Source: a virus
Length of the DNA stretch: 64,000 nucleotides
Strand: one strand, 5' to 3'
Virus record (IMG/VR): IMGVR_UViG_3300042465_009257
Span: 109,359 to 173,358 of that record
This document shows, in pieces, positions 42,471 to 64,000 of the stretch (position 1 is its first letter; each line of letters starts with the position of its first letter). Made by a program: the position numbers and the translations under genes. A model generated the notes under the pieces. The model saw only the letters and a list, made by a program, of their open reading frames with translations. It ran no database searches and was not told where the DNA came from.

Positions 42471-42472
42471 AT

Positions 42473-44332: not shown

Positions 44333-44362
44333 AGTATATTTATTTCTGTAAGGTATATAAAA

Positions 44363-46251: not shown

Positions 46252-46253
46252 GA

Positions 46254-48458: not shown

Positions 48459-48472
48459 GATATACTACTTAA

Positions 48473-48501: not shown

Positions 48502-48513
48502 CTAAAAATAAAT

Positions 48514-50160: not shown

Positions 50161-50163
50161 ATA

Positions 50164-50979: not shown

Positions 50980-50991
50980 GATTACCCTTTT

Positions 50992-51018
50992 TTACAGACG
51001 AAATTATATTTTACGAAA
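50992..51018 (-). promoter_or_regulatory. late promoter variant TTTCG-N17-TGTAA
   Basis: One mismatch, correct spacing. Confidence 0.55.
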
Positions 51019-51027
51019 TTTTAAATT

Positions 51028-51765
51028 TTATTTCAGCGTATCTAATTTATCGCAAATAAACTTAAGAATTTCGGCCCTCATTATGTCCTCCTTTTGAAAC
51101 TCAAAGGTGTGAATGCCCTTAGCGCGGGAATCTTCTCCTGAAAACAGATGAAAGAATTCCATGAAACCTGACCGTTTTTGATCAATTTGCTTAGGATCGC
51201 CGACAAAGATGAATTTTCCTCCGTTGGCGTATCGGGTAAGGATAGTCTGTAGTTCGAATCTTTCAAATCCTTGAGCTTCATCAATAATCACATAGGATCG
51301 AAACTGCACTCCACGTAAAAAGTTGTTAGAAATTGCTTTAACAACTCCATTCTCCGCTAAAGAATTAACTTGTTTAAAAGGAAGAAGTTCGTCTAGTTTT
51401 TCTTGTAATGGAGCGAAAAAAGGACCGACCTTACTTTCAATATCCCCTGGCAAAAATCCGAGTGAACGAGCGGCAGATTCAACCACGCTACGAATATAAA
51501 CCATATTATCGTATCTCTTTTCCTTAATTAGTTGCAGTGCGCAATATACAGCAACGAGCGTTTTGGAACTTCCAGCAGGACCACTAACAAAAATAGCCTT
51601 AGTCTTCTTATCCAAGATCAACTCAATCAATTGTTTTTGCTTTGGAGTCCATTTAAACTCTCTGATTAGCAACTCGTCGGTATTTAGTTCGACAAACTCG
51701 TTGGTGATGTCTTTCTCGATCCGTTTCTTTTTCGCCGTCGCCTTTACAGGGGGTTTTTTGCTCAT
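51028..51765 (-). CDS. phoH: PhoH-like ATPase
   Basis: GPAGSSKT, LGFLPGD, FLRG, IIDEAQ and GDPKQID motifs. Confidence 0.92.
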   Translation of the reverse strand: MSKKPPVKATAKKKRIEKDITNEFVELNTDELLIREFKWTPKQKQLIELILDKKTKAIFVSGPAGSSKTLVAVYCALQLIKEKRYDNMVYIRSVVESAARSLGFLPGDIESKVGPFFAPLQEKLDELLPFKQVNSLAENGVVKAISNNFLRGVQFRSYVIIDEAQGFERFELQTILTRYANGGKFIFVGDPKQIDQKRSGFMEFFHLFSGEDSRAKGIHTFEFQKEDIMRAEILKFICDKLDTLK

Positions 51766-51793
51766 ATAGGAAAGTTATTGTCCTCATTAAATA

Positions 51794-51820
51794 TTACAAT
51801 CATATTATATTATAAGGAAA
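51794..51820 (-). promoter_or_regulatory. late promoter TTTCC-N17-TGTAA
   Basis: Exact match in the divergent intergenic region. Confidence 0.75.
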
Positions 51821-51841
51821 TTTTAAAAACTTTTTCTTACA

Positions 51842-51870
51842 TTGACTTTTCTCTTTAAAATCCCTCTAAT
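51842..51870 (+). promoter_or_regulatory. sigma70-type early promoter TTGACT-N17-TCTAAT
   Basis: Near consensus; 6 nt before ATG 51877. Confidence 0.6.
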
Positions 51871-51876
51871 GTATAG

Positions 51877-52593
51877 ATGCAAATTCAGACTCATACCGAA
51901 ATTGGACGGCGCGATGAAAACCAAGACCGGATTTATACTTCGCAGAAAGATCACGGATTCTTATTAGCCGTCGCCGATGGACACGGAAAGCATGGGACAA
52001 TGGTCGCAGAACGGGCAATTCGAGCCGTTAAGGCAGGCGGCGCACCTAAGCTAGTCGGCAAATTTGAAACTTGGGTCGCACGGCTTCACCGCAAAGTTGT
52101 CATGCAAACCCGCGCTTTCACCCAAGGAGGATCAACTCTTTCTATTTTTTACCACCTTGACGGCGAATCTCACATTTATCAAGTAGGGGATTCCCCTATC
52201 TTTGTGAAAACAGGCAACACAATTCAGCAATTTCGCGGTCACGGAGTTGATTTTCAAGAAAATGATGAGGATTTATTGCGGGCCGTTGCGGCGGGAGGAC
52301 AAATGAAGATGATTAATGAATCTTTATACTTGACAAGCGGCAAAAGTGCCTTAAGATTGACTCGCGCCTTAGGTAATTCTGGATTTGGGGATGCACTAAG
52401 CTCTGATCCACTGATTAAAAAAATTGAAGGTATCGTAGATTCTGTCTTAGTTGCCAGTGATGGTTTTAATGGAGAAAAAGAAGAAGTATTTAATTTGATG
52501 AAGCGTCAGGAAGACATTTCAAGATTCGTGGAATTACAGAAGAAGCGCGGGATTGGGGATAATATGTCAATTAGTTTAAAATATTTGTTTTAA
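51877..52593 (+). CDS. PP2C-family Ser/Thr protein phosphatase
   Basis: R..NQD, VADGHG, VGDS, TRALG, ASDG and DNMS motifs. Confidence 0.9.
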   Translation: MQIQTHTEIGRRDENQDRIYTSQKDHGFLLAVADGHGKHGTMVAERAIRAVKAGGAPKLVGKFETWVARLHRKVVMQTRAFTQGGSTLSIFYHLDGESHIYQVGDSPIFVKTGNTIQQFRGHGVDFQENDEDLLRAVAAGGQMKMINESLYLTSGKSALRLTRALGNSGFGDALSSDPLIKKIEGIVDSVLVASDGFNGEKEEVFNLMKRQEDISRFVELQKKRGIGDNMSISLKYLF

Positions 52594-52597
52594 AAAA

Positions 52598-52858
52598 ATG
52601 AGCTACTATACAGATTCAGCATGGGTTCATCGAAAAGGAAAATCCACTTGGATGTTCCAGCCAGATCCTATTTATGGAAAACTCGCGCATACTACGCGCA
52701 ATGGCACAACATATCTTATTATGGATGGACTTCAAGAGGGTAAACCATTCTGGATCGGAGAGGTAACGGGCAAAACAATCTTTACGGTAGAGAAGTATCT
52801 TCGTGCCCGCGAAATTGAATTTTCAAATGGGGGAAGATATCTTTTCCCGAAGAAATAA
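52598..52858 (+). CDS. hypothetical protein
   Basis: 86 aa ORF in a tightly packed operon. Confidence 0.6.
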   Translation: MSYYTDSAWVHRKGKSTWMFQPDPIYGKLAHTTRNGTTYLIMDGLQEGKPFWIGEVTGKTIFTVEKYLRAREIEFSNGGRYLFPKK

Positions 52859-52870
52859 ATTATAAATAAA

Positions 52871-53086
52871 ATGAGATTTAAAGATATTGTTGGAAAAACG
52901 ATTATTGGTGCGGCAGAAATGAAAAAGCCGGAATATGATGATCAAGGTTGGCTTAAACTAAGCTTTTCAGATGGAACTGATTGTATTATTTGGGCCGGAT
53001 ATGGTTTTTACACTGGAGAATCGGAAGGTGAATATCCAGCCATTCTCGGAATTGCGAAAAATGTAGAAGATTTAATCGAAGCATGA
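52871..53086 (+). CDS. hypothetical protein
   Basis: 71 aa ORF, ATGA-coupled to the next gene. Confidence 0.6.
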   Translation: MRFKDIVGKTIIGAAEMKKPEYDDQGWLKLSFSDGTDCIIWAGYGFYTGESEGEYPAILGIAKNVEDLIEA

Positions 53087-53364
53087 AACCAATTCATAAA
53101 TTAGAAGTTCACCTCCAAAACCTTGGAGATATTTGTATTCCTGAACTCGGCGACCCTTGGATTCTGGTAGATGATGACGATAATGATCTTGCGGAAGCAG
53201 ATACTTTAGAAAAAGCTGCGGCCATGCTTCCAGGGGATAATACAGAAGACCTTTCAGAAATTGAACGGCTCAATTCTGTTATTAATGCTCAGCGGCGGCT
53301 TTTGATCCAGTGGACAGAAGCATACCAAGAGCTTTTAGAACAAACTCAGTTCATTATAAAATGA
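53083..53364 (+). CDS. hypothetical protein
   Basis: 93 aa coupled ORF. Confidence 0.6.
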   Translation: MKPIHKLEVHLQNLGDICIPELGDPWILVDDDDNDLAEADTLEKAAAMLPGDNTEDLSEIERLNSVINAQRRLLIQWTEAYQELLEQTQFIIK

Positions 53365-53675
53365 GGCCGGAACTCAAAGATTTTCACAAATCTATTTCCG
53401 ATTCGCGCAAACAGGCAGAAAACGAACTCCATTGTCTACAAGTCATTGAGAGCTTAATTAAAGATTCAGATGGAAAACAATGGGTTAAGGTTTCGGCGGA
53501 TTTAAAAATGGGCTTGGCAATAGCGCGATTTCCTAAAGAGGGCGGGGATGATAAAGATTTGTTTTTCGCGGTGGAAAACACAATGACTTGGGGCCTGCGG
53601 GAATATCCAACCAGCAACTCAGAAGATTCTATTTTTGACTTTTTTCCTCTTGACGAACTAGAAGTTTTGGTGTAA
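53361..53675 (+). CDS. hypothetical protein
   Basis: Likely ATG at 53361 overlapping the upstream TGA. Confidence 0.6.
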   Translation: MRPELKDFHKSISDSRKQAENELHCLQVIESLIKDSDGKQWVKVSADLKMGLAIARFPKEGGDDKDLFFAVENTMTWGLREYPTSNSEDSIFDFFPLDELEVLV

Positions 53676-53690
53676 TTAATTAAATCTACT

Positions 53691-53897
53691 ATGACTATCA
53701 CATTAAACATGCAAAATAAACTTTCCAATCAAGATTGGGAGTTGCTCTTTTTTGATAATGAATTTCGCCATTCAGTTTGGTATAATTCTTTGGAAGAGGC
53801 GGCAACTGAAGGACGCAATTGGCTAGAATCAAGTTCGGGTGACGTTCAGCCGGGAATTGAAATCTGGAAAGAGAATGAATTAATTCACAAAGAGTAA
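53691..53897 (+). CDS. hypothetical protein
   Basis: 68 aa ORF. Confidence 0.55.
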   Translation: MTITLNMQNKLSNQDWELLFFDNEFRHSVWYNSLEEAATEGRNWLESSSGDVQPGIEIWKENELIHKE

Positions 53898-53902
53898 ATT
53901 TC

Positions 53903-54100
53903 ATGAAAGAGGAAGCATCTTTTGAACGTTTATCTATTCACTTGGTAGATTGTTTACCTTGTCCTTTTTGCGGGTCAAAACGAATTATTAAAGGCGAACG
54001 ATGGTTTGGAATGTGCGTTGATTGCGGCGCGACCGGGCCGGAAAGAACAGGTAAATCAAACGAGAATAAAGTAAAACTTGATTGGAATACTAGAAAATAA
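53903..54100 (+). CDS. Lar-family (restriction alleviation-like) zinc-finger protein
   Basis: LPCPFCG...CVDCGATGP...WNTR signature. Confidence 0.75.
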   Translation: MKEEASFERLSIHLVDCLPCPFCGSKRIIKGERWFGMCVDCGATGPERTGKSNENKVKLDWNTRK

Positions 54101-54101
54101 A

Positions 54102-54317
54102 ATGAGCGTAAAAATCTGCACTGATTGCAAATACTGTGTTGAGAACACCGACTACCAGAATCTATCTCAATGTTCGCGGCCTTGGGTTTGTTTAATTTCG
54201 GGGAGAAAGGTCTGGAGCGGCGGGGAAGAAACAATTCCTTGTTGGCAAGCCAGAAAACAATTTTGCGGGACGACGGGATTGGGCTGGGAAAAGAAGGAGA
54301 TGGAACCCGTACTTTAA
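54102..54317 (+). CDS. small Cys-rich protein
   Basis: CTDCKYC...C...C...CG pattern. Confidence 0.6.
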   Translation: MSVKICTDCKYCVENTDYQNLSQCSRPWVCLISGRKVWSGGEETIPCWQARKQFCGTTGLGWEKKEMEPVL

Positions 54318-54345
54318 AGTTGAGAGTATAAAAAAGTTAATTAAT

Positions 54346-54660
54346 ATGGCAGTTAAAAAGAAAGCCCCTATGGCCCCTGAGTTTGGCCAAAAATGGATTA
54401 ATAAAAAAGGTGAGAAGTTTCAAGTCATTGCCGTAGCTAATAACCCGCCGACTCCTAAATATCCTTTGTGTGTCGTTTGCCAAGGAGACAATAAAAATTA
54501 TTGGTCTATTCCTATGGCTGATTGGCACGCCTCTTTTAAATTTGAAGCCCCTAAAGAAATGACCTTTGAGGAATACAAGACTTTGGGCGCGGATAGAGAA
54601 ATTATTCCTGAATTTGAATTAAAAATAATGGAAGAGAGGGTTATCTGGAGGAATAATTAA
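54346..54660 (+). CDS. hypothetical protein (DUF1653-like small beta domain)
   Basis: W..KKG..FQVIAVAN...VV.QG....WS.P..W pattern. Confidence 0.5.
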   Translation: MAVKKKAPMAPEFGQKWINKKGEKFQVIAVANNPPTPKYPLCVVCQGDNKNYWSIPMADWHASFKFEAPKEMTFEEYKTLGADREIIPEFELKIMEERVIWRNN

Positions 54661-54664
54661 AGAT

Positions 54665-55099
54665 ATGGAGATTAAGGAAAAATTAAAATCATTTTTTAAA
54701 AAAATTTTCCACATTCCGCAAAATATGGAAGAGAGTAAAGGGAGAGATGAATCTATTATTTTTGAGAATATCCGGCGACTTCGGCAATATGGCCATACAC
54801 CCGCCCCATTTCTAATTAATAATGAATTAGATTTTTTTACCGAGTTTGAATATGAATCGGAGAGTCTTCGCGGAAATCAAATCAGATATATTAAAGAAAA
54901 AATAGAAATTTTAGCCCCGACGCAAGCTTTACAATCATTTATGGCATTTGGGATAGTAACCAACGCGGAAAAGCTTGAGGAATTAGTTGAGGGATTGATT
55001 TCTCTCAATGATATGGCGTGGAAGAAGGTCGATTGGCGGGAATTAATGCGGGCCGTGGGGCGAATTGAAATTTACCCAAATACTGTTTTTGTAGATTAA
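54665..55099 (+). CDS. hypothetical protein
   Basis: 144 aa ORF. Confidence 0.55.
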   Translation: MEIKEKLKSFFKKIFHIPQNMEESKGRDESIIFENIRRLRQYGHTPAPFLINNELDFFTEFEYESESLRGNQIRYIKEKIEILAPTQALQSFMAFGIVTNAEKLEELVEGLISLNDMAWKKVDWRELMRAVGRIEIYPNTVFVD

Positions 55100-55102
55100 A
55101 AA

Positions 55103-55735
55103 ATGAGAAATGTAAACTGCCCTAAAACAAGAATCTTCGTGCGCTGCGATACGTTCGGCGGTTCCATTAATGAATATGAACCCGCTTGGCTTGTCTCTGC
55201 GCGGGCAATGCGCAACCGCCCCCTAATCTTTCAGGTTTGGGTGGAGAAATATGCCGCATGTTTTGATAAAGTGCCGCCGCATTGTTTGTTTTGGCGTATG
55301 CCTAGCAGACAAGAACAGGCGCTACCGTTGCATAAAATCCAGATGTGGGAATGCTTATCAGGATCAATTGAGGTTTGGCGCAAAGATCAACTTACTGATG
55401 TGCCGGTGCTAGTTAATCTTGGAAAAGAAATGCCGCCGATTAAGGGCCACTATTGGTTTACAATTGATTTTATGCCGGAGGGGCAAGGCGGCGGATTACT
55501 TGATATTGGCGATGTAGAACTTCTCGAAGAGCATAAAGAAGGAAATATTATTAAACTCGAAAACGGGCAAATCGCAATTTATCCAAATAATAGAATTAAG
55601 TGGCTTCCAGTTTCGCTTACTGGCAAAGCTGCGGCGGCGGCAATTCCAGATTGGGATGTCGCGACGAATGCAAAATGGGATGAGTGGTGGTCATATTCAG
55701 ATGAAGTTCTTGGAGATGAGAAATGGGCTTATTAA
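55103..55735 (+). CDS. conserved phage hypothetical protein
   Basis: 210 aa; YWFTID...EHK....IKLENGQIAIYPNNRI motif. Confidence 0.65.
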   Translation: MRNVNCPKTRIFVRCDTFGGSINEYEPAWLVSARAMRNRPLIFQVWVEKYAACFDKVPPHCLFWRMPSRQEQALPLHKIQMWECLSGSIEVWRKDQLTDVPVLVNLGKEMPPIKGHYWFTIDFMPEGQGGGLLDIGDVELLEEHKEGNIIKLENGQIAIYPNNRIKWLPVSLTGKAAAAAIPDWDVATNAKWDEWWSYSDEVLGDEKWAY

Positions 55736-55771
55736 AATGAAGGATTAGCGGGATTATTATGAAATTTCACC

Positions 55772-55800
55772 TTGACAAAGATCTTTTCGTGTGCTAAACT
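55772..55800 (+). promoter_or_regulatory. sigma70-type promoter TTGACA-N17-TAAACT with extended -10 TG
   Basis: Consensus -35; 5 nt before ATG 55806. Confidence 0.75.
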
Positions 55801-55805
55801 GCGGC

Positions 55806-56198
55806 ATGGAAGAAACAATAGACATCATTGAACGAATGGAATCCGGCAATTACGAATACGATCAAATGGAAGCTTTCGAGGCTTGGGTAAAGCGCCACCA
55901 CGGGGATAAAAAAGAAAAAGAGATTAATAATATCAAAGCCCAAATGGCGGATTATGAGAGCGGCCCGAAATACCTCCATGACTATGTAAGCGGCGAGGCG
56001 GCTTTAAGAAATCGTATTTTGCGGCTTGGCGAGGAAACTAAGCAGGGAACAGAAGGCGGGGTAGATAAGGTTCAGGCTTATTGCAAGGCGATACAGGAAG
56101 CGGCGATGGTTATTAAGAAGCAGGCAGATTGGGAGATTGAGCCGTTTGACTTGGGAGTCGCGATGAGGTTTCGATTCATCCTTCACTGGAATGATTAA
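55806..56198 (+). CDS. hypothetical protein
   Basis: Likely ATG at 55806. Confidence 0.6.
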   Translation: MEETIDIIERMESGNYEYDQMEAFEAWVKRHHGDKKEKEINNIKAQMADYESGPKYLHDYVSGEAALRNRILRLGEETKQGTEGGVDKVQAYCKAIQEAAMVIKKQADWEIEPFDLGVAMRFRFILHWND

Positions 56199-56580
56199 AA
56201 TTAGTAATTCACTTATGACAAAAGAAAACGCACATCTATATCTGCCGCTGATGCAAGCCCTCGCCGAGGGAAAGACGATTGAGTATGGCTCAGGATCAAT
56301 TTGGGGGCAAGTAAACGAACCAAAATTTATTTACCCTCCTCAGTATTACCGCATCAAGCCCGAACCAGTAATGGTGCCGCTGGGGCCGGAGGATGTGCCG
56401 CCGGGGAGCGTGATTCGCATGGATCACTGGGCTGATCACACATGGAAGTTGGTATCAAGTATCGACGAAAATCAGATTAATTTTGGGCAAAATAGCTGGT
56501 CCACCTACGAAGCACTTCAGAAATGTTTTGAAATTAAACGACCCGGCGAGGATTGGAAGCCTTGCCACAAACCTGCTTGA
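56191..56580 (+). CDS. hypothetical phage protein
   Basis: LPLMQALAEGKTIE...YRIKPEP motif common in small phage proteins. Confidence 0.65.
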   Translation: MIKISNSLMTKENAHLYLPLMQALAEGKTIEYGSGSIWGQVNEPKFIYPPQYYRIKPEPVMVPLGPEDVPPGSVIRMDHWADHTWKLVSSIDENQINFGQNSWSTYEALQKCFEIKRPGEDWKPCHKPA

Positions 56581-56588
56581 ACTAAATC

Positions 56589-56798
56589 ATGATCCCAATC
56601 GACAAATTAGAAGAGACGCCATCCCCACTTATCACTCAATTTGAACTGCTGGTGCTGCTCGACGGACTGCACGGATCGATGCGATTTGCGGACGGCGGGA
56701 ACGTCTGGAAGTGGTCCATCGAACAACGGAAGGATGTCTTGGAATCCATCTACGGGCGGCTGGCCAATATGCCTATCGACACCCCAACCAAGTCATGA
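56589..56798 (+). CDS. hypothetical protein
   Basis: 69 aa ORF, ATGA-coupled. Confidence 0.55.
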   Translation: MIPIDKLEETPSPLITQFELLVLLDGLHGSMRFADGGNVWKWSIEQRKDVLESIYGRLANMPIDTPTKS

Positions 56799-56965
56799 GC
56801 GACACAAATTGGACAACTTGGTGTGATAACTGCCTCAACCGCCGCCCATGCCGCGCCATGACATCCGGCATCGTTATCAACTGCATCGAGATGGAAATTC
56901 ATCTTTGCCAATGGTGCCGGGGACAACGCACCCGCCGAGCCAAAGCCGTAACCACAAAACCATGA
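56795..56965 (+). CDS. small zinc-finger protein
   Basis: MSDT start; CDNC...CQWC. Confidence 0.55.
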   Translation: MSDTNWTTWCDNCLNRRPCRAMTSGIVINCIEMEIHLCQWCRGQRTRRAKAVTTKP

Positions 56966-57426
56966 GCACCCCAGAAACAGACAGCCCGCCGCGACTTGTT
57001 CGTCCATATTTCCTTCTTGCTGGCGTGACCGAAGTCCCTCTGTCGCACTACCAGGGCATGAAAGTGGGACTGCCGCCAATCTGCATTTGCTGCCGCCGCG
57101 CTACCGATGGACCAGCGAGCGGATGTGCCGAGGCCCTCTGTTTTGAATGCTACGAACTTGTCAGAACGCGGGGATCAAGTCTTAGGACGAACAACGAACA
57201 ACGAACCAACAAAGCCATGAACGACACCATCTACGAAACCCTCGAATCAGCAAAACAGGCTTGTAAAAAATACATCGAAGCGGAGCAAGCCCTTGAAGAC
57301 CAGTTTGGCATAACCGAAGAGATTACCGATTCCTGCGTCAGGTCAATCTTCATTGGCCAATATTGGGACGAGACGGGCCGACTTAAGAGCTTCGGATTCA
57401 CTAACTGGGATTTAACAAAACCATGA
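56962..57426 (+). CDS. hypothetical protein, probably two in-frame units (second ATG at 57217)
   Basis: Starts MSTPETDSPPRLVR; Cys-rich first half bounded by inverted repeats. Confidence 0.5.
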   Translation: MSTPETDSPPRLVRPYFLLAGVTEVPLSHYQGMKVGLPPICICCRRATDGPASGCAEALCFECYELVRTRGSSLRTNNEQRTNKAMNDTIYETLESAKQACKKYIEAEQALEDQFGITEEITDSCVRSIFIGQYWDETGRLKSFGFTNWDLTKP

Positions 57427-57668
57427 GCGACACCGAAAACGACAGCCCGCCGCGCCTTGTGCGACTTCTTTTTGGAAGCAAGTTTGAGTGGGACTTTGCG
57501 CCATTTGGGGATTTCTTTATGATGACTGTATCGCCAGTTACCGCGCCAAATATCATCCGCCGCATGATGCAAAGGATCATCATGGGATCAAGGTATCGGC
57601 TGATCGAGGATCGCCCACTTACGGCAATCCTCATTTCTCCACCAAACAACGAAACAACAAAACCATGA
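57423..57668 (+). CDS. hypothetical protein
   Basis: Starts MSDTENDSPPRLVR, the same leader as the previous gene. Confidence 0.55.
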   Translation: MSDTENDSPPRLVRLLFGSKFEWDFAPFGDFFMMTVSPVTAPNIIRRMMQRIIMGSRYRLIEDRPLTAILISPPNNETTKP

Positions 57669-57976
57669 GCGACACCCCAAAAATAAATAAAGACGCGCCT
57701 TGTTCATCCTCTTCCGAACTACCAACAAACACCGATATGCAAAAACGATTCTTTGATATGACCAACGACGAAATCGAAAAGAAGGTCCGGCTCACGCCAG
57801 ACGAGAAAACCGCCGTGGATAACTTCCTCGCTGCCGCCAAAGCTCTCCCGAAAAGCATCTGCATCGAAGTGGATGACAACTGGGATGGGGAAGGCCACCT
57901 GCGAGTCAGTAAGCGGATCACCAGCGGGTCATGCCGCCAGGTGGCGAGCCTCCGCAAGAAGTCTCTGAATTTCTGA
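57665..57976 (+). CDS. hypothetical protein
   Basis: MSDTP start, ATGA-coupled. Confidence 0.55.
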   Translation: MSDTPKINKDAPCSSSSELPTNTDMQKRFFDMTNDEIEKKVRLTPDEKTAVDNFLAAAKALPKSICIEVDDNWDGEGHLRVSKRITSGSCRQVASLRKKSLNF

Positions 57977-58023
57977 TGAACGGCGTGCTACCCAAACCCT
58001 GATTAAAATATCCAACCAAAACC

Positions 58024-58281
58024 ATGAGCACCATAGAAACAGATAACACCATGAAGCTTAACGAAGAAAGATTTGCCACCAATCTCGCCGCCAGCACAAA
58101 GACCCACGACGAATGGCTATCAGTCGTCAAATTCGGGCTTCAAACTCTGCTGGAAAACCAAGGAACGCTTGCGGAAATAATCGCAGTTGAAGCTGCCCGC
58201 GAGGCCATGAAAAACGACTATCCGCCGCACTTTGAGATGCACCGCATGATGCGCGAACTTGGGTTGCGATTTATTGGATGA
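58024..58281 (+). CDS. hypothetical protein
   Basis: 85 aa ORF after an AAAACC-ATG context. Confidence 0.55.
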   Translation: MSTIETDNTMKLNEERFATNLAASTKTHDEWLSVVKFGLQTLLENQGTLAEIIAVEAAREAMKNDYPPHFEMHRMMRELGLRFIG

Positions 58282-58303
58282 ACAACGTAATACCCAAACA
58301 ACC

Positions 58304-58777
58304 ATGAGCGACACCCCAAGAACAGACGAACAAATCAACGGCAAGCCCTGCACGCGCTTTGCTCTCATGGCGGGCGACTCTCTGCGGGACGCAACAGTCC
58401 AGTCTGAGTTCGCCCGAACGCTTGAGCGCGAGCTTAACGAGGCTCGTGATCGCCAATGGGCGAATAGCATCCACTCATGCCACAACGAGTGCGCCAGACC
58501 GATGTGCGTTCTGAGGCGCGAACGAGACGAGTGGAAGGAAAAAGCAGAACGCCTGCAAGCTGCTTGCAACAAATGGAGTGAGTCCGATATGCTGCTTACT
58601 AACTGCCCAGATTGCCGGAAGTTTCGCGGGCATGGGCACGAATGCAAATCTGAGCCGCCGCAACCGCCCATCAAAAACTGCCGCAAATGCTTTGGAGATG
58701 GGCAGGTAGAAATCCAGAGTGGGCCATACATGAGGGAATGCCCAGAATGCGGGGGTTCCGGCAAACAAAAAAAATAA
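58304..58777 (+). CDS. MSDTPRTD-type protein with coiled coil and C-terminal CxxCxGxG zinc finger
   Basis: FARTLERELNEA; CRKCFGDG...CPECGGSG. Confidence 0.65.
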   Translation: MSDTPRTDEQINGKPCTRFALMAGDSLRDATVQSEFARTLERELNEARDRQWANSIHSCHNECARPMCVLRRERDEWKEKAERLQAACNKWSESDMLLTNCPDCRKFRGHGHECKSEPPQPPIKNCRKCFGDGQVEIQSGPYMRECPECGGSGKQKK

Positions 58778-58780
58778 ATT

Positions 58781-58996
58781 ATGATTCTAATTGAATTCAA
58801 ACCGAAGCCGGACATCACGGCATACGAACTCGCCATGATTATGACTTGGAGGCTCAAGATGCACGGCCTCGCAGCCCTTGAGGCGATGACGGAGGAACTG
58901 AACGAGCACACCATGCGCCATTTCGAGGTTCTCGAACTGCCGCCGCCCAAGAAAACAATCTTCTCCAAGACGCGGGATTGGATTAAAAATCTCTAA
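58781..58996 (+). CDS. hypothetical protein
   Basis: 71 aa; FKPKPDITAYELA motif. Confidence 0.6.
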   Translation: MILIEFKPKPDITAYELAMIMTWRLKMHGLAALEAMTEELNEHTMRHFEVLELPPPKKTIFSKTRDWIKNL

Positions 58997-59048
58997 TATT
59001 TATCCAGCAAAGATTAAGTTTTAATCATAATTTTTAAAAAAGTTTATA

Positions 59049-59540
59049 ATGGCGCTAGGAATAACAAAAAAGAAAATTGAATCACAATTCGTTCGCATTT
59101 CCGTTCCTGAAGTACAATTTGGAATGTGCTTGGCGACCCAGCGGGACGCTTGTAAACCAAATCGCGACAGTCGTCTGTCTACTAAGCATTCTGGATTCGG
59201 AGTTCATTTCGCGGGGGTAATCGGGGAACTTTGTTTTCATCGCGTCTACGGCGGGAAGATTAATCAGTCGATATTGCCGCAAGGAGATCAACACGCCGCC
59301 GATATTGAACTTCCAGACGGTAGATGCGTTGAAGTAAAAACCAGTTTATATACTGGGCCGGATGTTGAGTTAAAGTTTGAAAGTAGAGAGCTTGAAAAAT
59401 GCGAATATTGCTGTCTAGTCCAAGTGACGTTACCTGATTCTGGTTTGGTTTTTCCGATTTGGAATCTGGAGGAGATTAAAAGCAAATTAATTAAAAAAGA
59501 TTATGGATATGGTGACCGTTGGGTTTTCCGGCCAGATTAA
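59049..59540 (+). CDS. PD-(D/E)XK nuclease-like protein
   Basis: GE....., D..ADI and VEVKT motifs. Confidence 0.65.
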   Translation: MALGITKKKIESQFVRISVPEVQFGMCLATQRDACKPNRDSRLSTKHSGFGVHFAGVIGELCFHRVYGGKINQSILPQGDQHAADIELPDGRCVEVKTSLYTGPDVELKFESRELEKCEYCCLVQVTLPDSGLVFPIWNLEEIKSKLIKKDYGYGDRWVFRPD

Positions 59541-59562
59541 TTAGGAATTTTAAAATCAAATT

Positions 59563-59739
59563 ATGAATCCCGAAATTAAAGAGAAATTTCCCGAGTGGGC
59601 CGCGAGATATGAAGAAATGCAGGATCTACTTTTTGGCCTATATTACGCCCGAAACTTTCAAATGGATCATAATGCCGTGGTGGATGGTCTAAATGAGGTT
59701 GATTATTTCCTTCGGCGGGAGGAAAAGAATTACAATTAA
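59563..59739 (+). CDS. hypothetical protein of 58 aa (MNPEIKEKFPEW...), not in the ORF track
   Basis: Open frame that fills the gap in the operon. Confidence 0.5.
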   Translation: MNPEIKEKFPEWAARYEEMQDLLFGLYYARNFQMDHNAVVDGLNEVDYFLRREEKNYN

Positions 59740-59763
59740 TTATGAATAAAAATAAAACAAAAC

Positions 59764-59974
59764 ATGAAAAACAATACATCACAAACTAATGCTATTTTGG
59801 AGTACCTTTCCAAAGGAAAAACTTTAACACCATTGGAAGCTTTAAATAAATTTTGGCTGTTTCCGTCTCGGCGCTCGGATTTATGACCTGAAAAAGCAGG
59901 GTTACGAGTTTAATACGGTTATGGTTAAAATTCCCTCTGGCGCGAGTGTGGCGCAGTATAGCTTAGACAACTAA
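59764..59974 (+). pseudogene. winged helix-turn-helix protein with a +1 frameshift near 59851
   Basis: SQTNAILEYLSKGKTLTPLEALNKF continues as GCFRLGARIYDLKKQGY if one T is removed from TTTT. Confidence 0.75.
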
Positions 59975-60020
59975 TTTTCCGCCCCGAATCGAATTAATTC
60001 TCTGAAAAGCAAATTTCCCC

Positions 60021-60049
60021 TTGACAGCCCCACTTTCGTGTGGTAGATT
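60021..60049 (+). promoter_or_regulatory. sigma70-type promoter TTGACA-N17-TAGATT with extended -10 TG
   Basis: Consensus -35; shares TTTCGTGTG in the spacer with the promoter at 55772. Confidence 0.75.
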
Positions 60050-60056
60050 AAATCCT

Positions 60057-60257
60057 ATGGATAAACACAACCCAATCACGCCTGTTCAGCAGGCATACCT
60101 AAACGCTAGCTTCCAAAACAAGTTGGAGCGATTGATTAATGAATTCCACCTAGAGGCAGACTCTGATACTCCAGACTATGTTTTGGCGAATTACATGATT
60201 CAATGTCTCATGGCGTTCAATACGGCGACTCAAGCGAAAATGAGAACTTCAGATTAA
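60057..60257 (+). CDS. small conserved phage protein
   Basis: LERLINEF..E..SDTPDYVLANY motif; likely ATG at 60057. Confidence 0.65.
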   Translation: MDKHNPITPVQQAYLNASFQNKLERLINEFHLEADSDTPDYVLANYMIQCLMAFNTATQAKMRTSD

Positions 60258-60312
60258 AGTCCCCCGCGCCGTCACCGAAGGAGAAAACCGAAGATCCGAT
60301 TTTGGGGAAGGA

Positions 60313-61458
60313 TTAAGCATCATAGTGGTCAAGGTTGTCGCGCTTGACAAAACAGTTTTCTCTTGCACATAGCGGGGAGAAATTGCTAAAATGGTTCAAA
60401 AGTTCTATCTCCCACTCGTTTTCTGCAATTGATGTGGGGATAATATGATCTAAATGCCAAGTTAAATTAAATTCTTCGGGAACTCTGTAGCCTATATTCC
60501 CATAATTATCCCAATTCATCCACGGCTCGAACCTAGATTCAATATAAGATCTGAAATCTTCGAACGATAAACCAAGTATTTCTTCCGTTTTCTTGTTCTT
60601 GGTTTTACCCAGTTTTCTGAACCTATTTGCAATAGCTGATCTAATCCTCCCGACAAAAACTGAAAGGCGTCTTTTTTCTTTTCGTTGCTCTTCGGTAAAT
60701 TTGAGTTTATACTTTTCTTCGTATCTTTTTTGAACGAGTCTCGTAACCCACTTTTCTCCAGCGTGGCAAGACTTGCTGTATTCTCGAAAAACATAATCTG
60801 GCCGCTGGGGATGTTCTTGGTCAAACTTCCAAGCTAAGTTTGGATTATCTTTAATCCATTGCTGTAAAAATTCCCATTCGTCTTCGTTCAGCAATCGCTT
60901 CACTGGGAAAAGGGTATATTGTCCGAATTCACTTTTTTCGCTAGGGAAAACTGGATCAAATTTTAAGTTATAAAGGTTATTTGCCGATCTTTGCTTTAAA
61001 CCTTTCGGAGTATAGGCTTTTTCTTGTAATTTTTGAAATTTTTCTTCTGTGGTCCACCATTCCCCGTTCGTAGAGCCTCGATTGTAACCAGCAAAAATAT
61101 AACCATCGGAACTCCTTCTATCACCACTCCTCCACTTCTGCGAGCTATTCACTTTAGTCCAATTTTTCAATTCGGCATATTCAGTATTGGTGAGTTGTCG
61201 GTTGACACAAAAAGGTGAAAATCCTTGGCTATTATCTCTTATTCGGGGCTTCGAAAAACCTGGGTGATAGACCCACCTTTCACCATTAATAAAAGAACGC
61301 CCATATTCGAGAAAATACATATTAGGATAATCTGGGGATTCATCATAAGCCCAAAGTCTTAAATCTGCATTTTTTGGATCATTTTTCCATTTTTGAAGAT
61401 CAATGTATTCTGATTTGGTCGGCATACGGTTAATATTTAAATAGCTCTTCTTTTCCAT
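60313..61458 (-). CDS. HNH endonuclease with three N-terminal repeats
   Basis: ILG.S...F..YIE..F..WMNWDNYG...WHLDHIIP...NHFSNFSPL....N; repeated Y.F..Y......GE.W units. Confidence 0.85.
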   Translation of the reverse strand: MEKKSYLNINRMPTKSEYIDLQKWKNDPKNADLRLWAYDESPDYPNMYFLEYGRSFINGERWVYHPGFSKPRIRDNSQGFSPFCVNRQLTNTEYAELKNWTKVNSSQKWRSGDRRSSDGYIFAGYNRGSTNGEWWTTEEKFQKLQEKAYTPKGLKQRSANNLYNLKFDPVFPSEKSEFGQYTLFPVKRLLNEDEWEFLQQWIKDNPNLAWKFDQEHPQRPDYVFREYSKSCHAGEKWVTRLVQKRYEEKYKLKFTEEQRKEKRRLSVFVGRIRSAIANRFRKLGKTKNKKTEEILGLSFEDFRSYIESRFEPWMNWDNYGNIGYRVPEEFNLTWHLDHIIPTSIAENEWEIELLNHFSNFSPLCARENCFVKRDNLDHYDA

Positions 61459-61459
61459 T

Positions 61460-61600
61460 TTATTTTTCGAAATACGAATCTAAGGCCCTCTTAATAATTT
61501 CAGACATCGTTGAGCCTGTTTCTTCCGCCCGACCCTTTAACTTTGCTTTAATAGCGTCAGTGAGAAAAACTTCGACCTTTTGCTTGTTTTTTAGTTTCAT
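61460..61600 (-). CDS. ribbon-helix-helix (CopG-like) DNA-binding protein of 46 aa, not in the ORF track
   Basis: KVEVFLTDAIKAKLKGRAEETGSTMSEIIKRALDSY. Confidence 0.75.
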   Translation of the reverse strand: MKLKNKQKVEVFLTDAIKAKLKGRAEETGSTMSEIIKRALDSYFEK

Positions 61601-61618
61601 AAATAATTATAATATGTA

Positions 61619-61645
61619 TTACATGTAATTTTCCTGAAATTGAAA
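61619..61645 (-). promoter_or_regulatory. late promoter variant TTTCA-N17-TGTAA
   Basis: One mismatch, correct spacing, upstream of the RHH-HNH pair. Confidence 0.55.
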
Positions 61646-61967
61646 TTTTATTTTTTCTGTATTTTGCAAAAGGCCTGGCTTTTTTTTCAAAAACCGAAAT
61701 TTTCGGTAATTGAAATGTTGTTTTGCTTTTGGTTTTTTGAGCGGAGCTTGTAAAGGGGATGGATAAGATAAAGGGGGGATAAAAAGAATATGAACGGTTT
61801 GGATTTTTGGGAGGTCGAGAGGTGAGTGTCCCCCCGGCGTTCCGTTAGGGTCTTGTTAGGACTAGCAACTATCAATACCCGGCCTAACACTAGCACGCTA
61901 ACACTAGCACCCTCACACTAGCACTAGCGTCCTGACAGTGTGCCGTGCTGCCGCTCCAGGCCCTAAC

Positions 61968-62005
61968 ACAAAAGGCCCCGCTACCCTTTCGGGCAACGGG
62001 GCTTT
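61968..62005 (-). terminator. Rho-independent terminator
   Basis: GCCCCGTTGCCC-GAAA-GGGTAGCGGGGC followed by CTTTTGT. Confidence 0.8.
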
Positions 62006-62012
62006 GCTAGTG

Positions 62013-62423
62013 TTAGTTGTAGTCGTTTTCGTCCTGCTCCACGATGACAAGCGGACCTGTTAGGACAGCGCCCTCTGTGGGACCGTCCTCCTCAATGTTA
62101 GGACTGGCGTTGATTGCCGCTTGTGTTAGGCTGCCATTCAATGCAGCCCGGAACATATCGTCTTTGTTAGGATATGCCTGTTTCATCGTAGCCGCCCATA
62201 CGGGGGCTTTAGTGTTAGGATTGAGACGCCGCCACTCGATTTCGTTAGGACCATACTTGGCTAGAATCGAAGGTGGAACGTCCAACGTGTTAGGACGAGC
62301 GGGAGGATCAGGAACCTCCGCTTGTGTTAGGGTGAAGCCTTCCGATCTCAGGAAGTCTAACATCTGCTTGACTTTGCTAGTGTCATCCGTTGCCCGGATT
62401 GCCAGGTTAATATTGATCTTCAT
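62013..62423 (-). CDS. hypothetical protein
   Basis: 136 aa ORF between a hairpin and the terminator. Confidence 0.65.
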   Translation of the reverse strand: MKININLAIRATDDTSKVKQMLDFLRSEGFTLTQAEVPDPPARPNTLDVPPSILAKYGPNEIEWRRLNPNTKAPVWAATMKQAYPNKDDMFRAALNGSLTQAAINASPNIEEDGPTEGAVLTGPLVIVEQDENDYN

Positions 62424-62438
62424 GTTAGGGTGGGTTGT

Positions 62439-62463
62439 GCCGGGGAGGATCTCCCTCCCCGGC
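62439..62463. other. intergenic hairpin GCCGGGGAGG-N5-CCTCCCCGGC
   Basis: Perfect 10-bp inverted repeat between the two island genes. Confidence 0.7.
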
Positions 62464-62469
62464 GTTATG

Positions 62470-63477
62470 TTAGGCAGTCACCACGGCGACCGTCTTCTTT
62501 GCTGTTAGGCTCTGGAGGTATGCGACCCCTGCCGAACTAGCAGCTTTCCTACTTTGGTTAGTGTTGAGGACAAAATCCGCTTGTCTCAACTCGTCTAACA
62601 CCTCTTTCGCTTCCTTGCTAGTCGCGCCTTGCATCGGCGTGGCTGCTACCTCTTGCACCTGACGCCCGGAAGCGTTAGTAGCAAGGAATGTTAGGACGGC
62701 GATGTGCTCCGTGTTCCAGCCGTCGCGGTAATAACCGCTAGCCTTAAGGGCTTTCCTAGCACCTTCTACCGTGAAGATGTCTAGCTCATTAGTGATGAAC
62801 TGCGCCCTAACATCTTGGATCTGCTTCTTTATCGCCCTTGCAAAGGGGCGAACGTTTTTACAGTATGTTAGGGTGGCTTCCTTGGTTGGCATCTTCTCGT
62901 TAGGCATGTAGACTGCCCACATGTTAGTGAAGATGCTAACTCTTTCGTCCAGCTCGTAAGGCATCAGCTTGAGTTCCGTTAGGCGACCACTAGATCCGCA
63001 CAAGGCACCGTCGCCGAGAGTTTCGTTAGTGGCCATGATCACCATGAAGTTAGAGGGTGAAAGCTCTAACTCATACTCGACTCCTTTGGAATCGTGTATT
63101 GTTAGGGTCTTGCGCTCCCCGCCAAGCTCTAGCAATTGTTTCAAAAAGGTCTTGAGACCCTTGTCTAACACTTGCACCTCGTCAAGAAAGAATACATTCT
63201 TGTTAGAGAAGCTAGTACAATTCTGAATCATGAGCGATTTGAATTGCGATAGGGTCACCCCTACGCTAACGTTGTGGGATTTGAACCCCGCAACCTCTAG
63301 CAACTTCATGCAGATGTTAGCGACCCGTGTTTTCCCCAGACCGGCGAAACCAGTTAGGAGAACGTGTTGGATAGGAGCGGCACCCATAGCGGCATCCCAT
63401 AGGATGGTCACTAACTTGACGAACAAGTTAGGCTGGAGCATTTCCTTCACGGCATTTTTGATAGTCTCGATTTGCAT
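62470..63477 (-). CDS. ruvB: RuvB-like AAA+ ATPase
   Basis: HVLLTGFAGLGKT Walker A, FFLDEVQ Walker B, MATNE sensor 1, GRL arginine finger, RuvB-like C-terminal winged helix; likely ATG at 63477. Confidence 0.75.
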   Translation of the reverse strand: MQIETIKNAVKEMLQPNLFVKLVTILWDAAMGAAPIQHVLLTGFAGLGKTRVANICMKLLEVAGFKSHNVSVGVTLSQFKSLMIQNCTSFSNKNVFFLDEVQVLDKGLKTFLKQLLELGGERKTLTIHDSKGVEYELELSPSNFMVIMATNETLGDGALCGSSGRLTELKLMPYELDERVSIFTNMWAVYMPNEKMPTKEATLTYCKNVRPFARAIKKQIQDVRAQFITNELDIFTVEGARKALKASGYYRDGWNTEHIAVLTFLATNASGRQVQEVAATPMQGATSKEAKEVLDELRQADFVLNTNQSRKAASSAGVAYLQSLTAKKTVAVVTA

Positions 63478-63733
63478 ATTGTTAGTATTATCTATGGTGC
63501 GGTTGGTTAGTAATTGCACCTTGCTGCCCTAACCTTGCGGCAGGGCAGGCTGGTAAAATTGACTATCAAATTTTCTAGGCTTACCGCTCCCCTAATCGTT
63601 AGGATCATCGCCGGGCTTTCCAGGGCAGGACTTGTCAGGATGGAGCGCCTGCCAGGCACACCCACCGGAAAGAGTCGATGCGTTCCGTTAGGATCGGGCC
63701 GCTCTTTCGTTTAACGCTTTCCAGCGCACAGCC

Positions 63734-63790
63734 AGTCTACACGACCCGGAAGGGATTGCAAATTCTTTTTTTTCTTTTTTTTCTTTTTCT
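63734..63790 (-). promoter_or_regulatory. sigma70-type early promoter TTGCAA-N16-TAGACT with upstream A tracts
   Basis: Plausible hexamers and an UP-element-like A-rich tract pointing into the RuvB-like operon. Confidence 0.55.
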
Positions 63791-63817
63791 TTATTGAGAT
63801 TGAATCTCAATTGCGAC

Positions 63818-64000
63818 CCCCCACGCGCCTGCCCCCACGCGCCTGCCCCCACGCGCCTGCCCCCACGCGCCTGCCCCCACGCGCCTGCCCCCACGCGCCT
63901 GCCCCCACGCGCCTGCCCCCACGCGCCTGCCCCCACGCGCCTGCCCCCACGCGCCTGCCCCCACGCGCCTGCCCCCACGCGCCTGCCCCCACGCGCCTGC
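63818..64000. repeat. perfect 14-bp tandem repeat (CCCCCACGCGCCTG)n, at least 13 copies, running off the window
   Basis: Directly visible. Confidence 0.95.

Follow-up and report, generated by a model that had tools for sequence, protein, structure and literature searches.

A GTTAG-saturated island in a large freshwater phage whose genome is otherwise nearly purged of the word

The island, its genes and the contig end

The window, the whole stretch of 64 kb that was analysed, is the final part of a 173-kb contig from a large freshwater phage, whose translation starts lack Shine-Dalgarno motifs, which hints at a Bacteroidota-like host. Near its end lies an island saturated with the asymmetric word (T)GTTAG(G). 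The portion inside the window (61844..63692) carries 44 copies, 32 as GTTAG on the plus strand and 12 as CTAAC (GTTAG on the minus strand), together with 18 copies of CTAG, whereas a zero-order model expects 3.8 copies of the pentamer on both strands. An earlier reading made from the letters alone (the sequence-only reading) had counted the same numbers by hand and estimated about four copies by chance, and both agree with our recount. The extended forms GTTAGG, TGTTAGG and CCTAACA occur 22, 14 and 3 times, and the plus-strand copies are preceded by T in 19 of 32 cases and followed by G in 22 of 32. The enrichment is 12-fold relative to composition and about 100-fold relative to the bulk frequency, and it spans the coding and non-coding DNA of the island. 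As had been described, the onset is abrupt, at 61844, where the GC content climbs from about 40% to 52-55%. Most copies are not arranged in tandem, and small local duplications are present.

Several features are embedded in the island. Its outer edge is marked by a conserved boundary element, TTGTTAGGACTAGCAAC (61853..61869, plus strand), which is found as the same composite element at the island edge of the related locus L004 and as a close variant in the flank of a more distant homologous locus, L011. It is followed by a dense block of CTAAC and CTAG composed of three 14-bp units of CCTAACACTAGCAC (61883..61924, plus strand); in L004 a larger homologous GTTAG/CTAG block follows the tandem repeat TR3. 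On the minus strand, a hairpin resembling an intrinsic terminator (61975..62002; a 12-pair stem with 9 GC pairs and a T-rich tail) lies after the smaller of the two island genes and is conserved in the relatives L004 and L002. Copies of the word are still dense downstream of this hairpin. At the other side of the genes, a non-coding leader or upstream region (63478..63817, minus strand) holds more copies and, at 63763-63792, a long homopurine/homopyrimidine A/T tract; its layout is the same in L004 and L008. The start and stop codons of both island genes lie within copies of the word.

The larger gene (62470..63477, minus strand) encodes a stand-alone RuvB homolog of 335 aa. The longest open reading frame begins with GTG at 63519, but the homologs begin at the ATG at 63477, which we took as the start. 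The protein matches Pfam RuvB_N with 31.1 bits (cut-off 27) and contains Walker A (GLGKT) and Walker B (DE) motifs. In a comparison with PDB profiles the best 18 matches were all RuvB (1in7, E 2.9e-10, query residues 15-310), and the top 43 Foldseek matches were also all RuvB (TM 0.55-0.66). Judged by the domain threshold and by this full-length similarity, the protein is a RuvB AAA+ motor. It resembles RuvB in full-length sequence and fold, including the pre-sensor hairpin region, but is only about 20% identical to the solved RuvB structures and belongs to a separate phage family of about 50 clusters. No match to RuvA_N was found in the 173-kb genome; in place of RuvA, the partner here would be the product of the smaller gene (62013..62423, minus strand), a protein of 136 aa that falls into no known family and whose C-terminal tail is acidic and disordered (mean pLDDT 60). 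It has no match in Pfam or PHROG, and its gene always follows that of the RuvB-like protein. Structure prediction suggests a weak contact between the two proteins (score 0.42, best control 0.00).

The contig stops at window position 64000, within a GC-rich 14-bp tandem repeat, CCCCCACGCGCCTG, present in 13.1 units (63818..64000). This repeat corresponds to one of the relatives, termed TR2, that splits the island, and comparison with the relatives indicates that about 1.4 kb of the island is absent past the contig end, so that the coordinates 61844-63692, from which the sequence-only reading started, cover only part of the feature. The contig end is an assembly break. In related phages the island is located in the middle of long contigs, which are possibly permuted assemblies, and the earlier idea of an early-expressed, possibly terminal or first-injected segment is a conjecture. 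The start of the contig showed no synteny with the upstream flanks of the relatives that would have indicated circular closure. The unit sequence of the tandem repeats varies between relatives, even at 98% protein identity, and the scaffold gaps of the relatives coincide with such repeats.

Selection on the word inside and outside the island

The sequence-only reading described the word as sporadic elsewhere. Its density outside the island is indeed low, but the word is in fact depleted there: of all pentamers, GTTAG/CTAAC shows the strongest depletion in the remaining 171 kb, with 39 copies compared with 135 expected from a Markov model and 369 from a zero-order model. The purge amounts to roughly 10-fold below expectation and affects both orientations. 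In the purged bulk of the window (1..61843) only 18 copies occur in 61.8 kb, and TGTTAGG and GGTTAG are absent. In bulk coding sequence, sense CTAAC was found 17 times compared with 86.5 in synonymous shuffles, and sense GTTAG 15 times compared with 111. A scan of all 5- and 6-mers over 173 kb revealed a single further k-mer island, which is a family of coding repeats.

The island genes show the opposite pattern. Using synonymous shuffles that drew on the island's own codon usage, we found 17 sense CTAAC in the RuvB-like gene compared with 5.2 (maximum 11 in 500 shuffles) and 7 antisense copies compared with 1.1 (maximum 4), and in the 136-aa gene 8 sense copies compared with 3.1 (maximum 6). 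The observed counts lie beyond every shuffle, which rules out an artefact of codon usage. The dipeptides Pro-Asn and Leu-Thr are 3-5-fold more frequent in the island, and the 8 sense copies of the 136-aa gene are accounted for by all 5 of its Pro-Asn and all 3 of its Leu-Thr pairs, as had been noticed before. At synonymous sites, 21% differ from L002 in motif codons and 45% elsewhere (p=4e-4), and 33% and 57%, respectively, differ from L004 (p=0.007). In proteins of 65-98% identity, copies of the word are conserved where the sequences align, with the remaining synonymous positions close to saturation. The proposal of a DNA-level code that constrains protein sequence is supported by these results: the word is enriched in either orientation within the island genes and purged from the rest, it also fills the DNA past the terminator, and synonymous change in motif codons is about halved.

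The sites are evenly spaced. In 61844-63692 the mean gap is 43 bp and the coefficient of variation of the gaps is 0.50, compared with 0.96 for random placement; in four islands it ranges from 0.43 to 0.62 (P<0.0002). Every gap in the tested gene segments is at most 120 bp, and whole islands have gaps of 136-381 bp at tandem repeats and scaffold gaps. No helical phasing of the sites at 10.5 bp was found. The sites also favour the sense strand roughly 3:1, and by 76:21 in three islands (p=8e-12), a bias that is confounded with the direction of transcription. Bulk proteins could encode either orientation about equally. The orientation flips at tandem repeats in L004 and L008, and the upstream segment of L002 is mixed.

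The phage also strongly avoids GTAC, GC-containing palindromes and GAGCCC. Inside the island, 6-bp palindromes remain at 0.43-0.61 of expectation and GAGCCC is absent, so that GTTAG is the sole avoidance rule that is inverted there. By this avoidance profile the island is native phage DNA.

Related phages and exchange of the cassette

The same island is present in related phages, with 56-78 sites over about 3-3.4 kb at four loci, and it lies inside contigs of 44 kb and 194 kb from independent samples, with flanks that are nearly free of sites. The freshwater sample from which L002 and L003 derive is described in PMC13350812. Such recurrence, together with the shared avoidance of palindromes, rules out a chimeric join or foreign DNA, which the sequence-only reading had named as a possible undoing of its claim. 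An artefact or neutral by-product in general, including a functionless slippage repeat, could be suspected from the position at the contig end, the GC content (about 53% compared with 38%) and the small local duplications. However, we regard it as scarcely credible, given that aligned sites are conserved and that most copies are non-tandem.

Identities of the RuvB-like protein and of TerL do not run in parallel. In the 194-kb contig they are 88% and 63%, respectively, and in the 44-kb contig 65% and 96%, so that the island behaves as a swappable cassette that moves as a unit. The purge accompanies the island and was seen only in island-bearing lineages: around the islands of phages with 63-96% TerL identity the observed/expected ratio of GTTAG is 0.05-0.15, compared with 0.43-0.9 in relatives at 36-42% TerL identity, island status being established only for the closer phages. 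The ratio is 0.30 in L138 (65% TerL identity), which is not among the contigs with established island status. Palindrome avoidance, unlike the purge of GTTAG, is family-wide.

The loci of distant RuvB-like homologs (L012 and L132-L134) are not saturated with GTTAG, which indicates that the word is not a general property of this motor family, and in L011 it is confined to the non-coding flanks. The family is therefore ruled out as an obligate carrier of the word. As to a different word filling these distant modules, the short contig of L012 carries GGCGCGCC five times and CTTAACC six times, and the likewise short contigs of L132-L134 show mild k-mer enrichments only. Viral, genome and metagenome collections, searched with the RuvB-like protein, yielded almost nothing beyond the word-index matches. 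In a scan of viral contigs for triple TGTTAGG, the hit that was inspected in full, L055, is a coding tandem repeat, and none of 16 candidates matched this genome by blastn.

The relatives carry further elements next to the word. These include at least three iteron-like units of about 30 bp, each beginning with CCTAACG and adjoined by a GC-rich repeat, a long tract of A/T and, after it, the AAA+ gene, as well as two promoter-like 108-bp units. Genes of anti-restriction type (Lar, methyltransferases and GmrSD_N) are located near the islands of relatives, and an N6/N4 methyltransferase gene adjoins the island in L002 and L004. The latter is missing from the present genome and is therefore not required, which rules it out as the cause. 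The genome-wide purge, the conservation, the even spacing, the strand bias and the horizontal exchange had all been missed by the sequence-only reading.

Possible readers of the word

We suggest, tentatively and at somewhat less than even confidence, that this phage group reserves the asymmetric word (T)GTTAG(G) for one cassette of about 3-4 kb, in which it is written every ~40 bp through non-coding DNA and two genes, and removes it from nearly everywhere else. The word would be a polar cis-acting signal on DNA, and a sequence-reading protein of the phage, or one of its DNA-tracking machines, would respond to it even in single copies. The purge affects both orientations and holds against synonymous shuffles, which speaks for recognition at the DNA level and for a penalty on individual ectopic sites. 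Action on single copies would explain the purge, and a direction-sensitive reader would explain the strand bias. Even spacing without phasing is what one would expect of a reader that tracks along or coats the DNA, more than of phased dimers. The array would then be the exclusive address of the cassette, the sole place where the factor loads, stops or switches state. Most plausible as effectors would be the cassette's own motor, a RuvB-type pump for double-strand DNA, together with its small partner, or else a machinery acting on genome ends or junctions where the tandem repeats lie. Against the reserved word speaks that 5 bp is very short for a specific DNA-binding protein, and no HU/IHF-type protein was found in the genome as a binder of the array. 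A bolder form of the proposal, which we hold to be doubtful, is that the cassette addresses itself: genome-wide clearing would make the word an exclusive directional load or stop signal for the cassette's own RuvB-type pump, the small partner would recruit the motor, and the motor would act from there on the phage chromosome, e.g., by pulling in, processing or remodelling the genome, while the cassette travels between phages with its own address.

A host factor, such as a restriction enzyme or another defence enzyme, could explain the purge equally well. GTTAG might be the 5-bp asymmetric target of a host restriction-modification or BREX-like system, and the island a purposely clustered set of unmodified sites by which the enzyme is absorbed or diverted, the word being otherwise purged like other avoided sites. 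The two-orientation purge resembles the family's avoidance of GTAC, GC-containing palindromes and GAGCCC, a host-specific system could underlie a lineage-specific purge, and the anti-restriction-type genes near the relatives' islands agree with this idea. However, a genome with 44-80 sites would be destroyed by a cutting enzyme, and sites in both orientations would offer abundant head-to-head pairs to a Type III enzyme. Every other avoided site is still avoided in the island, indicating that no general exemption from restriction applies there. It is not obvious what even spacing and a sense-strand bias would do for such a decoy, for which literature searches gave no described precedent, and we consider it unlikely. 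Restriction-site avoidance as known is like the bulk of this genome, in which a short word is strongly depleted in both orientations alongside avoided palindromes, but it predicts no cluster of 44-80 copies, and its hallmark of genome-wide depletion does not extend to the island, where the copies are positively selected.

A Chi-like array seems rather less promising still. In this case the word would be that of a host RecBCD/AddAB-type enzyme, stacked in the active orientation beside a DNA end or a programmed break at the tandem repeats, where it halts degradation and starts recombination. Chi is likewise an asymmetric, direction-sensitive word of 5-8 nt; it is read by a DNA-tracking enzyme and works as a single copy, and stacking raises the chance of recognition. 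The word of the island is short, asymmetric, strand-biased and without fixed spacing, its density suits a signal that is recognised with less than full probability per encounter, the flanking tandem repeats repeatedly terminate contigs, and a gene for a branch-migration motor lies within the array. On the other hand, assemblers produce contig ends at repeats anyway, the orientation is mixed in the upstream segment of L002, and nothing in Chi logic accounts for the purge from the remaining 171 kb. Chi sites are enriched throughout the host chromosome, and to our knowledge they are not purged from phage genomes.

It is improbable, in our view, that the word serves as a box to which an initiator binds, with a replication origin written through and around the initiator gene. 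The relatives' ~30-bp CCTAACG units, GC-rich repeat, A/T tract and AAA+ gene recall an iteron-type origin, and lambda and P4 have initiator-binding words in or near the initiator gene. However, the AAA+ protein is a RuvB homolog outside the initiator clades, known origins are unlike 65-80 boxes over 3.4 kb without helical phasing, and titration through stray boxes does not demand a 10-fold purge. More improbable yet is a code at the RNA level, in which CCUAACA in the cassette transcripts would be read by an RNA-binding protein, a ribonuclease or a complementary small RNA and would act as a sponge or selective decay tag. The 76:21 sense bias and the embedding of the start and stop codons of both genes in the word would suit such a code, and the two 108-bp promoter-like units of the relatives would yield short GUUAGG-bearing transcripts. 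Yet bulk genes are purged of antisense copies as strongly as of sense ones (15 compared with 111; 17 compared with 86.5), and in the RuvB-like genes antisense copies are likewise in 4-8-fold excess (7 compared with 1.1 in the window). The word is also dense beyond the terminator, and a search of Rfam gave nothing significant in the island or in three relatives. Integron attC or core sites, suggested earlier by the match of GTTAGG to GTTRRR, are ruled out: this genome has no match to the Phage_integrase family of tyrosine recombinases, whereas all 14 control genomes do, and the copies are dispersed through coding DNA, not paired at cassette ends as integron sites are.

The reserved word can be compared with several known systems, and literature searches for the word itself found no relevant description. 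The CCTAAAG heptamer arrays of T7, which adjoin its terminal repeats and to which the island had been likened, are also irregularly spaced copies of a short asymmetric word at one special place of the genome and on one preferred strand: of the 25 copies, 16 fall inside roughly the leftmost 340 bp or the rightmost 270 bp, all on one strand. Their function is still unclear. The likeness is partial: the T7 arrays are small (11 and 5 copies) and non-coding, whereas the island runs with 44-80 copies through two genes, and the rest of the T7 genome has 9 CCTAAAG with about 5 expected genome-wide, whereas the word of the island is 10-fold depleted elsewhere. The matS, KOPS and parS clusters, the lambda origin and P4 ori/crr provide examples of words that give a replicon region its identity or direction for a protein that binds DNA or translocates on it, some of them in coding sequence. 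Compared with the island word, matS, KOPS, parS and initiator boxes are longer (8-19 bp), far sparser and without a demonstrated purge of this strength, and we know of no such word in a swappable phage cassette. With regard to iteron-type origins, which have phased repeats of about 17-22 bp, an AT-rich unwinding element and a neighbouring initiator gene, the likeness of the relatives' units, A/T tract and AAA+ gene is set against a pentamer array that is unphased and an AAA+ protein that is RuvB-like.

Short words that steer DNA-handling machines, among them Chi, KOPS, parS and packaging signals, have a central part in chromosome biology, and nearly all known examples come from bacterial chromosomes and a few model phages. 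In this phage lineage, a density contrast of about 100-fold in one pentamer between a cassette and the rest of the genome reshapes two proteins and overrides synonymous drift, showing that, for kilobases on end, coding sequence can be governed by selection for a DNA signal. Should a phage factor be the reader, the island would represent a new kind of genome addressing, and if the cassette addresses itself, a new class of viral cis-acting 'zip code' with Chi/KOPS-like logic that is owned by the phage. If it is a host enzyme, the island would be a new device of counter-defence or end protection that reveals the recognition word of that enzyme. The system is compact, with two candidate proteins. 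There is also a practical concern: with hypervariable tandem repeats at their borders, such islands systematically interrupt the assembly of metagenomes and are left as orphan contigs of 1.5-3.5 kb.

GTTAG within the island and in the rest of the genome

The island at window positions 61844-63692 was found by exact count to hold 32 GTTAG, 12 CTAAC, 22 GTTAGG, 14 TGTTAGG, 3 CCTAACA, and 18 CTAG. The hand counts of GTTAG/CTAAC and CTAG in the sequence-only reading are identical, and its expectation of about 4 GTTAG/CTAAC on both strands is close to the 3.8 computed from composition. Alignment of the 44 sites gave the consensus (T)GTTAG(G); of the 32 plus-strand copies, 19 have T at −1 and 22 have G at +1. 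The sites are spaced much more evenly than at random (CV of 0.43 to 0.62 versus 0.96, P<0.0002), with a mean gap of about 40 bp and a largest gap of at most 120 bp in the tested gene segments; in whole islands, gaps of 136 to 381 bp occur at tandem repeats and scaffold gaps. Gap analysis of the islands revealed no helical periodicity. On the sense strand of three islands, CTAAC is present 76 times and GTTAG 21 times (p=8e-12), where the proteins of the bulk genome would permit both about equally.

Codon usage does not account for this enrichment, which persisted in the shuffling control proposed earlier and exceeded in both minus-strand genes of the island the maximum of 500 synonymous shuffles made with the island's own codon usage. 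The RuvB-like gene carries 17 sense CTAAC (5.2 when shuffled, maximum 11) and 7 antisense copies (1.1, maximum 4), and the gene for the 136-aa protein carries 8 (3.1, maximum 6). Pro-Asn and Leu-Thr dipeptides reach three to five times expectation in the island proteins and likewise in three related loci, indicating that protein sequence is bent to accommodate the word, as had been suspected. In aligned orthologs, many sites occupy identical positions and others are lineage-specific gains, one of which, in the locus of a 194-kb relative contig (L002), is a ten-residue insertion composed nearly wholly of the word. Where the amino acid is the same in the window and in L002, 21% of the codons that touch the motif differ, as do 45% of those elsewhere (p=4e-4); in the comparison with the locus of a 44-kb relative contig (L004), the proportions are 33% and 57%, respectively (p=0.007). 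Antisense to the gene for the 136-aa protein, a plus-strand ORF of 154 aa (window 62044-62508) runs without a stop through about a dozen GTTAG copies, which it reads as Val-Arg or Leu-Gly; it is skipped by gene callers in the relatives and is probably a by-product of the frame usage of the motif.

No pentamer is more underrepresented than GTTAG/CTAAC in the other 171 kb, which contains 39 copies where a Markov model predicts 135 and base composition 369. These 39 include no TGTTAGG, no GGTTAG, and only 5 GTTAGG. Synonymous-codon shuffling of the bulk coding sequence predicted 86.5 sense CTAAC and 111 sense GTTAG, and 17 and 15 were observed. This similar depletion of the two orientations suggests that the word is recognized on DNA and not on a single transcript strand. 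The genome-wide k-mer check that had been recommended was run as a local-clustering scan of every 5- and 6-mer, and only two islands stood out, the GTTAG island and a CTGTA/TACAGA cluster. The latter, outside the window at about 14.7-19 kb of the phage contig (G000:C1:14751-19500), reaches 85 copies in 2 kb and consists of related repeat mini-genes; their word, unlike GTTAG, is not depleted elsewhere.

The purge tracks the island. With relatedness gauged by the phage protein TerL, the observed/expected ratio of GTTAG is 0.15 in the TerL region of the window, 0.05 in the flanks of L004 (TerL identity of 96%), and 0.10 in those of L002 (63%), all with an island. In three TerL-bearing relatives for which the presence of an island is not established, it is 0.30 (L138, 65%), 0.9 (L139, 42%), and 0.43 (L140, 36%), the last being equal to its Markov expectation.

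Other words are avoided as well. In the phage contig and in L138-L140, GTAC and most GC-containing 6-bp palindromes are extremely avoided, many palindromes having 0 to 3 copies where about 23 are expected, and so is the asymmetric GAGCCC in the phage contig. The avoidance of GTAC and palindromes was found in all the regions compared above for GTTAG and is common to relatives down to 36% TerL identity. In the islands, GC-containing 6-bp palindromes stand at 0.43 to 0.61 of expectation (bulk, 0.55), and GAGCCC is absent there too. By these measures, the island is native phage DNA with the GTTAG rule alone reversed.

The cassette in related phages

Homologs of the RuvB-like protein with 98, 88, 87, and 65% identity lie on contigs with the same gene pair and the same island, answering in the affirmative whether related phages carry it, and with the same word. 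In the middle of its contig, L002 packs 78 sites into 2.9 kb, and L004 has 65 in 3.4 kb, whereas their flanks of about 18 kb hold 4 and 2, respectively, versus about 38 expected. A chimeric contig join is ruled out by these internal islands. Relative to our phage, the 194-kb contig is 88% identical in the RuvB-like protein and 63% in TerL, and the 44-kb contig is 65% and 96% identical, respectively; the DNA of the latter is 90-96% identical in the flanks and about 70% in the island. Since the phylogeny of the cassette disagrees with that of the rest, the cassette is, judging from these identities, swapped among phages. More distant homolog modules (L012 and L132-L134) have 0 to 2 copies of the word, and in another (L011) it is confined to the non-coding flanks, one stretch of which is almost a copy of the boundary element. 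In L012, whose module is 30% identical, the 8-bp palindrome GGCGCGCC occurs five times in the small downstream gene and terminator (L012:1279-1667) and CTTAACC six times in the flanks; these repeats, on a contig of only 1.7 kb, may be a different word with a similar role.

The order of parts in the cassette was read from L004 and another island-bearing relative, L008. In gene orientation, the GC-rich 14-bp tandem repeat TR1 is followed by two small minus-strand ORFs, two promoter-like 108-bp units, and at least three units of about 30 bp that each open with CCTAACG. Then come the tandem repeat TR2, a long A/T tract, and, in this order, the RuvB-like gene and the acidic-tailed small gene, followed by a terminator, the tandem repeat TR3 (only about one unit in the window), and a dense GTTAG/CTAG block with a conserved boundary element at its end. 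The perfect GC-rich repeats of 14-16 bp that partition the islands lie at window 63818-64000, L004:8364-8432, 9575-9704, and 11652-11720, L008:236-340 and 1482-1550, and L002:9005-9071. Their unit sequences differ even among islands with 98%-identical proteins, and in L004 the TR1 unit reappears just ahead of TR3. The two tandem 108-bp units (L004:8943-9172 and L008:848-1072), in the half of the island absent from the window, may be small-RNA genes; each contains TTGACGG-N17-TATGTT and a conserved GCATGGACCCCTGAAA block along with ATGTTAGG, a hairpin, and a T-run.

Our island lies at the extreme 3' end of a single 173,358-bp IMG/VR phage contig whose final 64 kb make up the window. This contig, rated complete by CheckV, stops inside TR2 (13.1 perfect copies of a 14-bp unit), so that about 1.4 kb of the island is missing from it. 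Because scaffold gaps and contig ends fall on the tandem repeats, and orphan contigs of 1.2-3.5 kb are the form of the island in many samples, its terminal position is best explained by assembly and has no bearing yet on virion ends.

The RuvB-like protein and the proposed reading of the word

The larger island protein is a full-length RuvB homolog according to profile and model comparisons. Its Pfam RuvB_N score exceeds the threshold, the best 18 matches in a PDB profile search are RuvB (E down to 2.9e-10, query positions 15-310), and RuvB makes up all of the top 43 Foldseek matches of a model with a mean pLDDT of 71 and a weak C-terminal domain. At E<1e-10, about 50 clusters make up the family, and RuvA was not found in the genome. 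The 136-aa protein, which has an acidic tail, has no family match and a low-confidence fold prediction. A weak hint that the two form a complex comes from a predicted-complex score of 0.42 (best of three controls, 0.00). Of 80 solved complexes, 58 cleared the pass mark, as did 2 of 110 mismatched pairs; scores of 0.60 or below account for only 7 of the 80 and for both passing mismatches. At least 54% of contacts agree between runs, and the partner pLDDT is at least 57. The hint is strengthened by a small gene adjoining the RuvB-like gene at every homolog locus.

The data require a DNA-level reader, a cost for each ectopic copy, a benefit of maximal tolerable density in one cassette, and sensitivity to direction. 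In our analysis, this profile fits the control words of DNA-tracking or -processing machines better than classical operator or iteron binding. We therefore favor, at somewhat less than even confidence, the view that the word is an address that the phage owns and reserves for the cassette. The word would be read on DNA by a putative reader, even as a single ectopic copy and with regard to direction, and the likely effectors would be the RuvB-type pump of the cassette with its partner, or else machinery that acts at the tandem repeats to process ends or junctions.

A sponge for host defence would be the best account of the purge, but the survival of a genome with 44-80 targets is then hard to explain, and the island still follows all other avoidance rules; we consider it unlikely. 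A Chi-like array, for its part, accounts for the density and polarity of the sites and leaves the purge unexplained; we rate it a little less probable again. That the island is an origin agrees with the adjacent iteron-like units and A/T tract, yet the family of the motor does not suit and the 65-80 copies are unphased; we regard this as improbable. The least probable is an RNA code, since the antisense orientation is purged equally, is enriched in the island as well, and copies remain dense past the terminator. The match of GTTAGG to the integron core GTTRRR had been pointed out, but integron sites are excluded, as the genome has no tyrosine recombinase. The CCTAAAG arrays of T7, also invoked in the sequence-only reading, are still the nearest textbook picture of the island; the likeness is partial, however, because those arrays are small and non-coding and their word is not purged elsewhere in T7, whereas here the word is written through genes and purged from the rest of the genome.

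Host and neighboring genes

TerL is closest to cultured phages at only about 26% identity, and L002 and L003 derive from freshwater viromes that are aquaculture impacted (PMC13350812). A Shine-Dalgarno-like motif precedes only 6% of 241 ORFs in the phage contig, and upstream regions are A-rich, from which our guess is a Bacteroidota-like host that initiates without such pairing.

A ribbon-helix-helix gene (61460-61600) and a gene for a 381-aa HNH-like endonuclease (60313-61458) directly adjoin the island, and the pair is an insertion of about 1.5 kb relative to L004, whose flanking sequences are contiguous. L004 (14833-15600) and L002/L003 carry an N6/N4 DNA methyltransferase gene that is precisely absent from this genome, the gap being at window position ~55745 (G000:C1:165103-165108) between stretches of DNA that are about 90% identical to L004.
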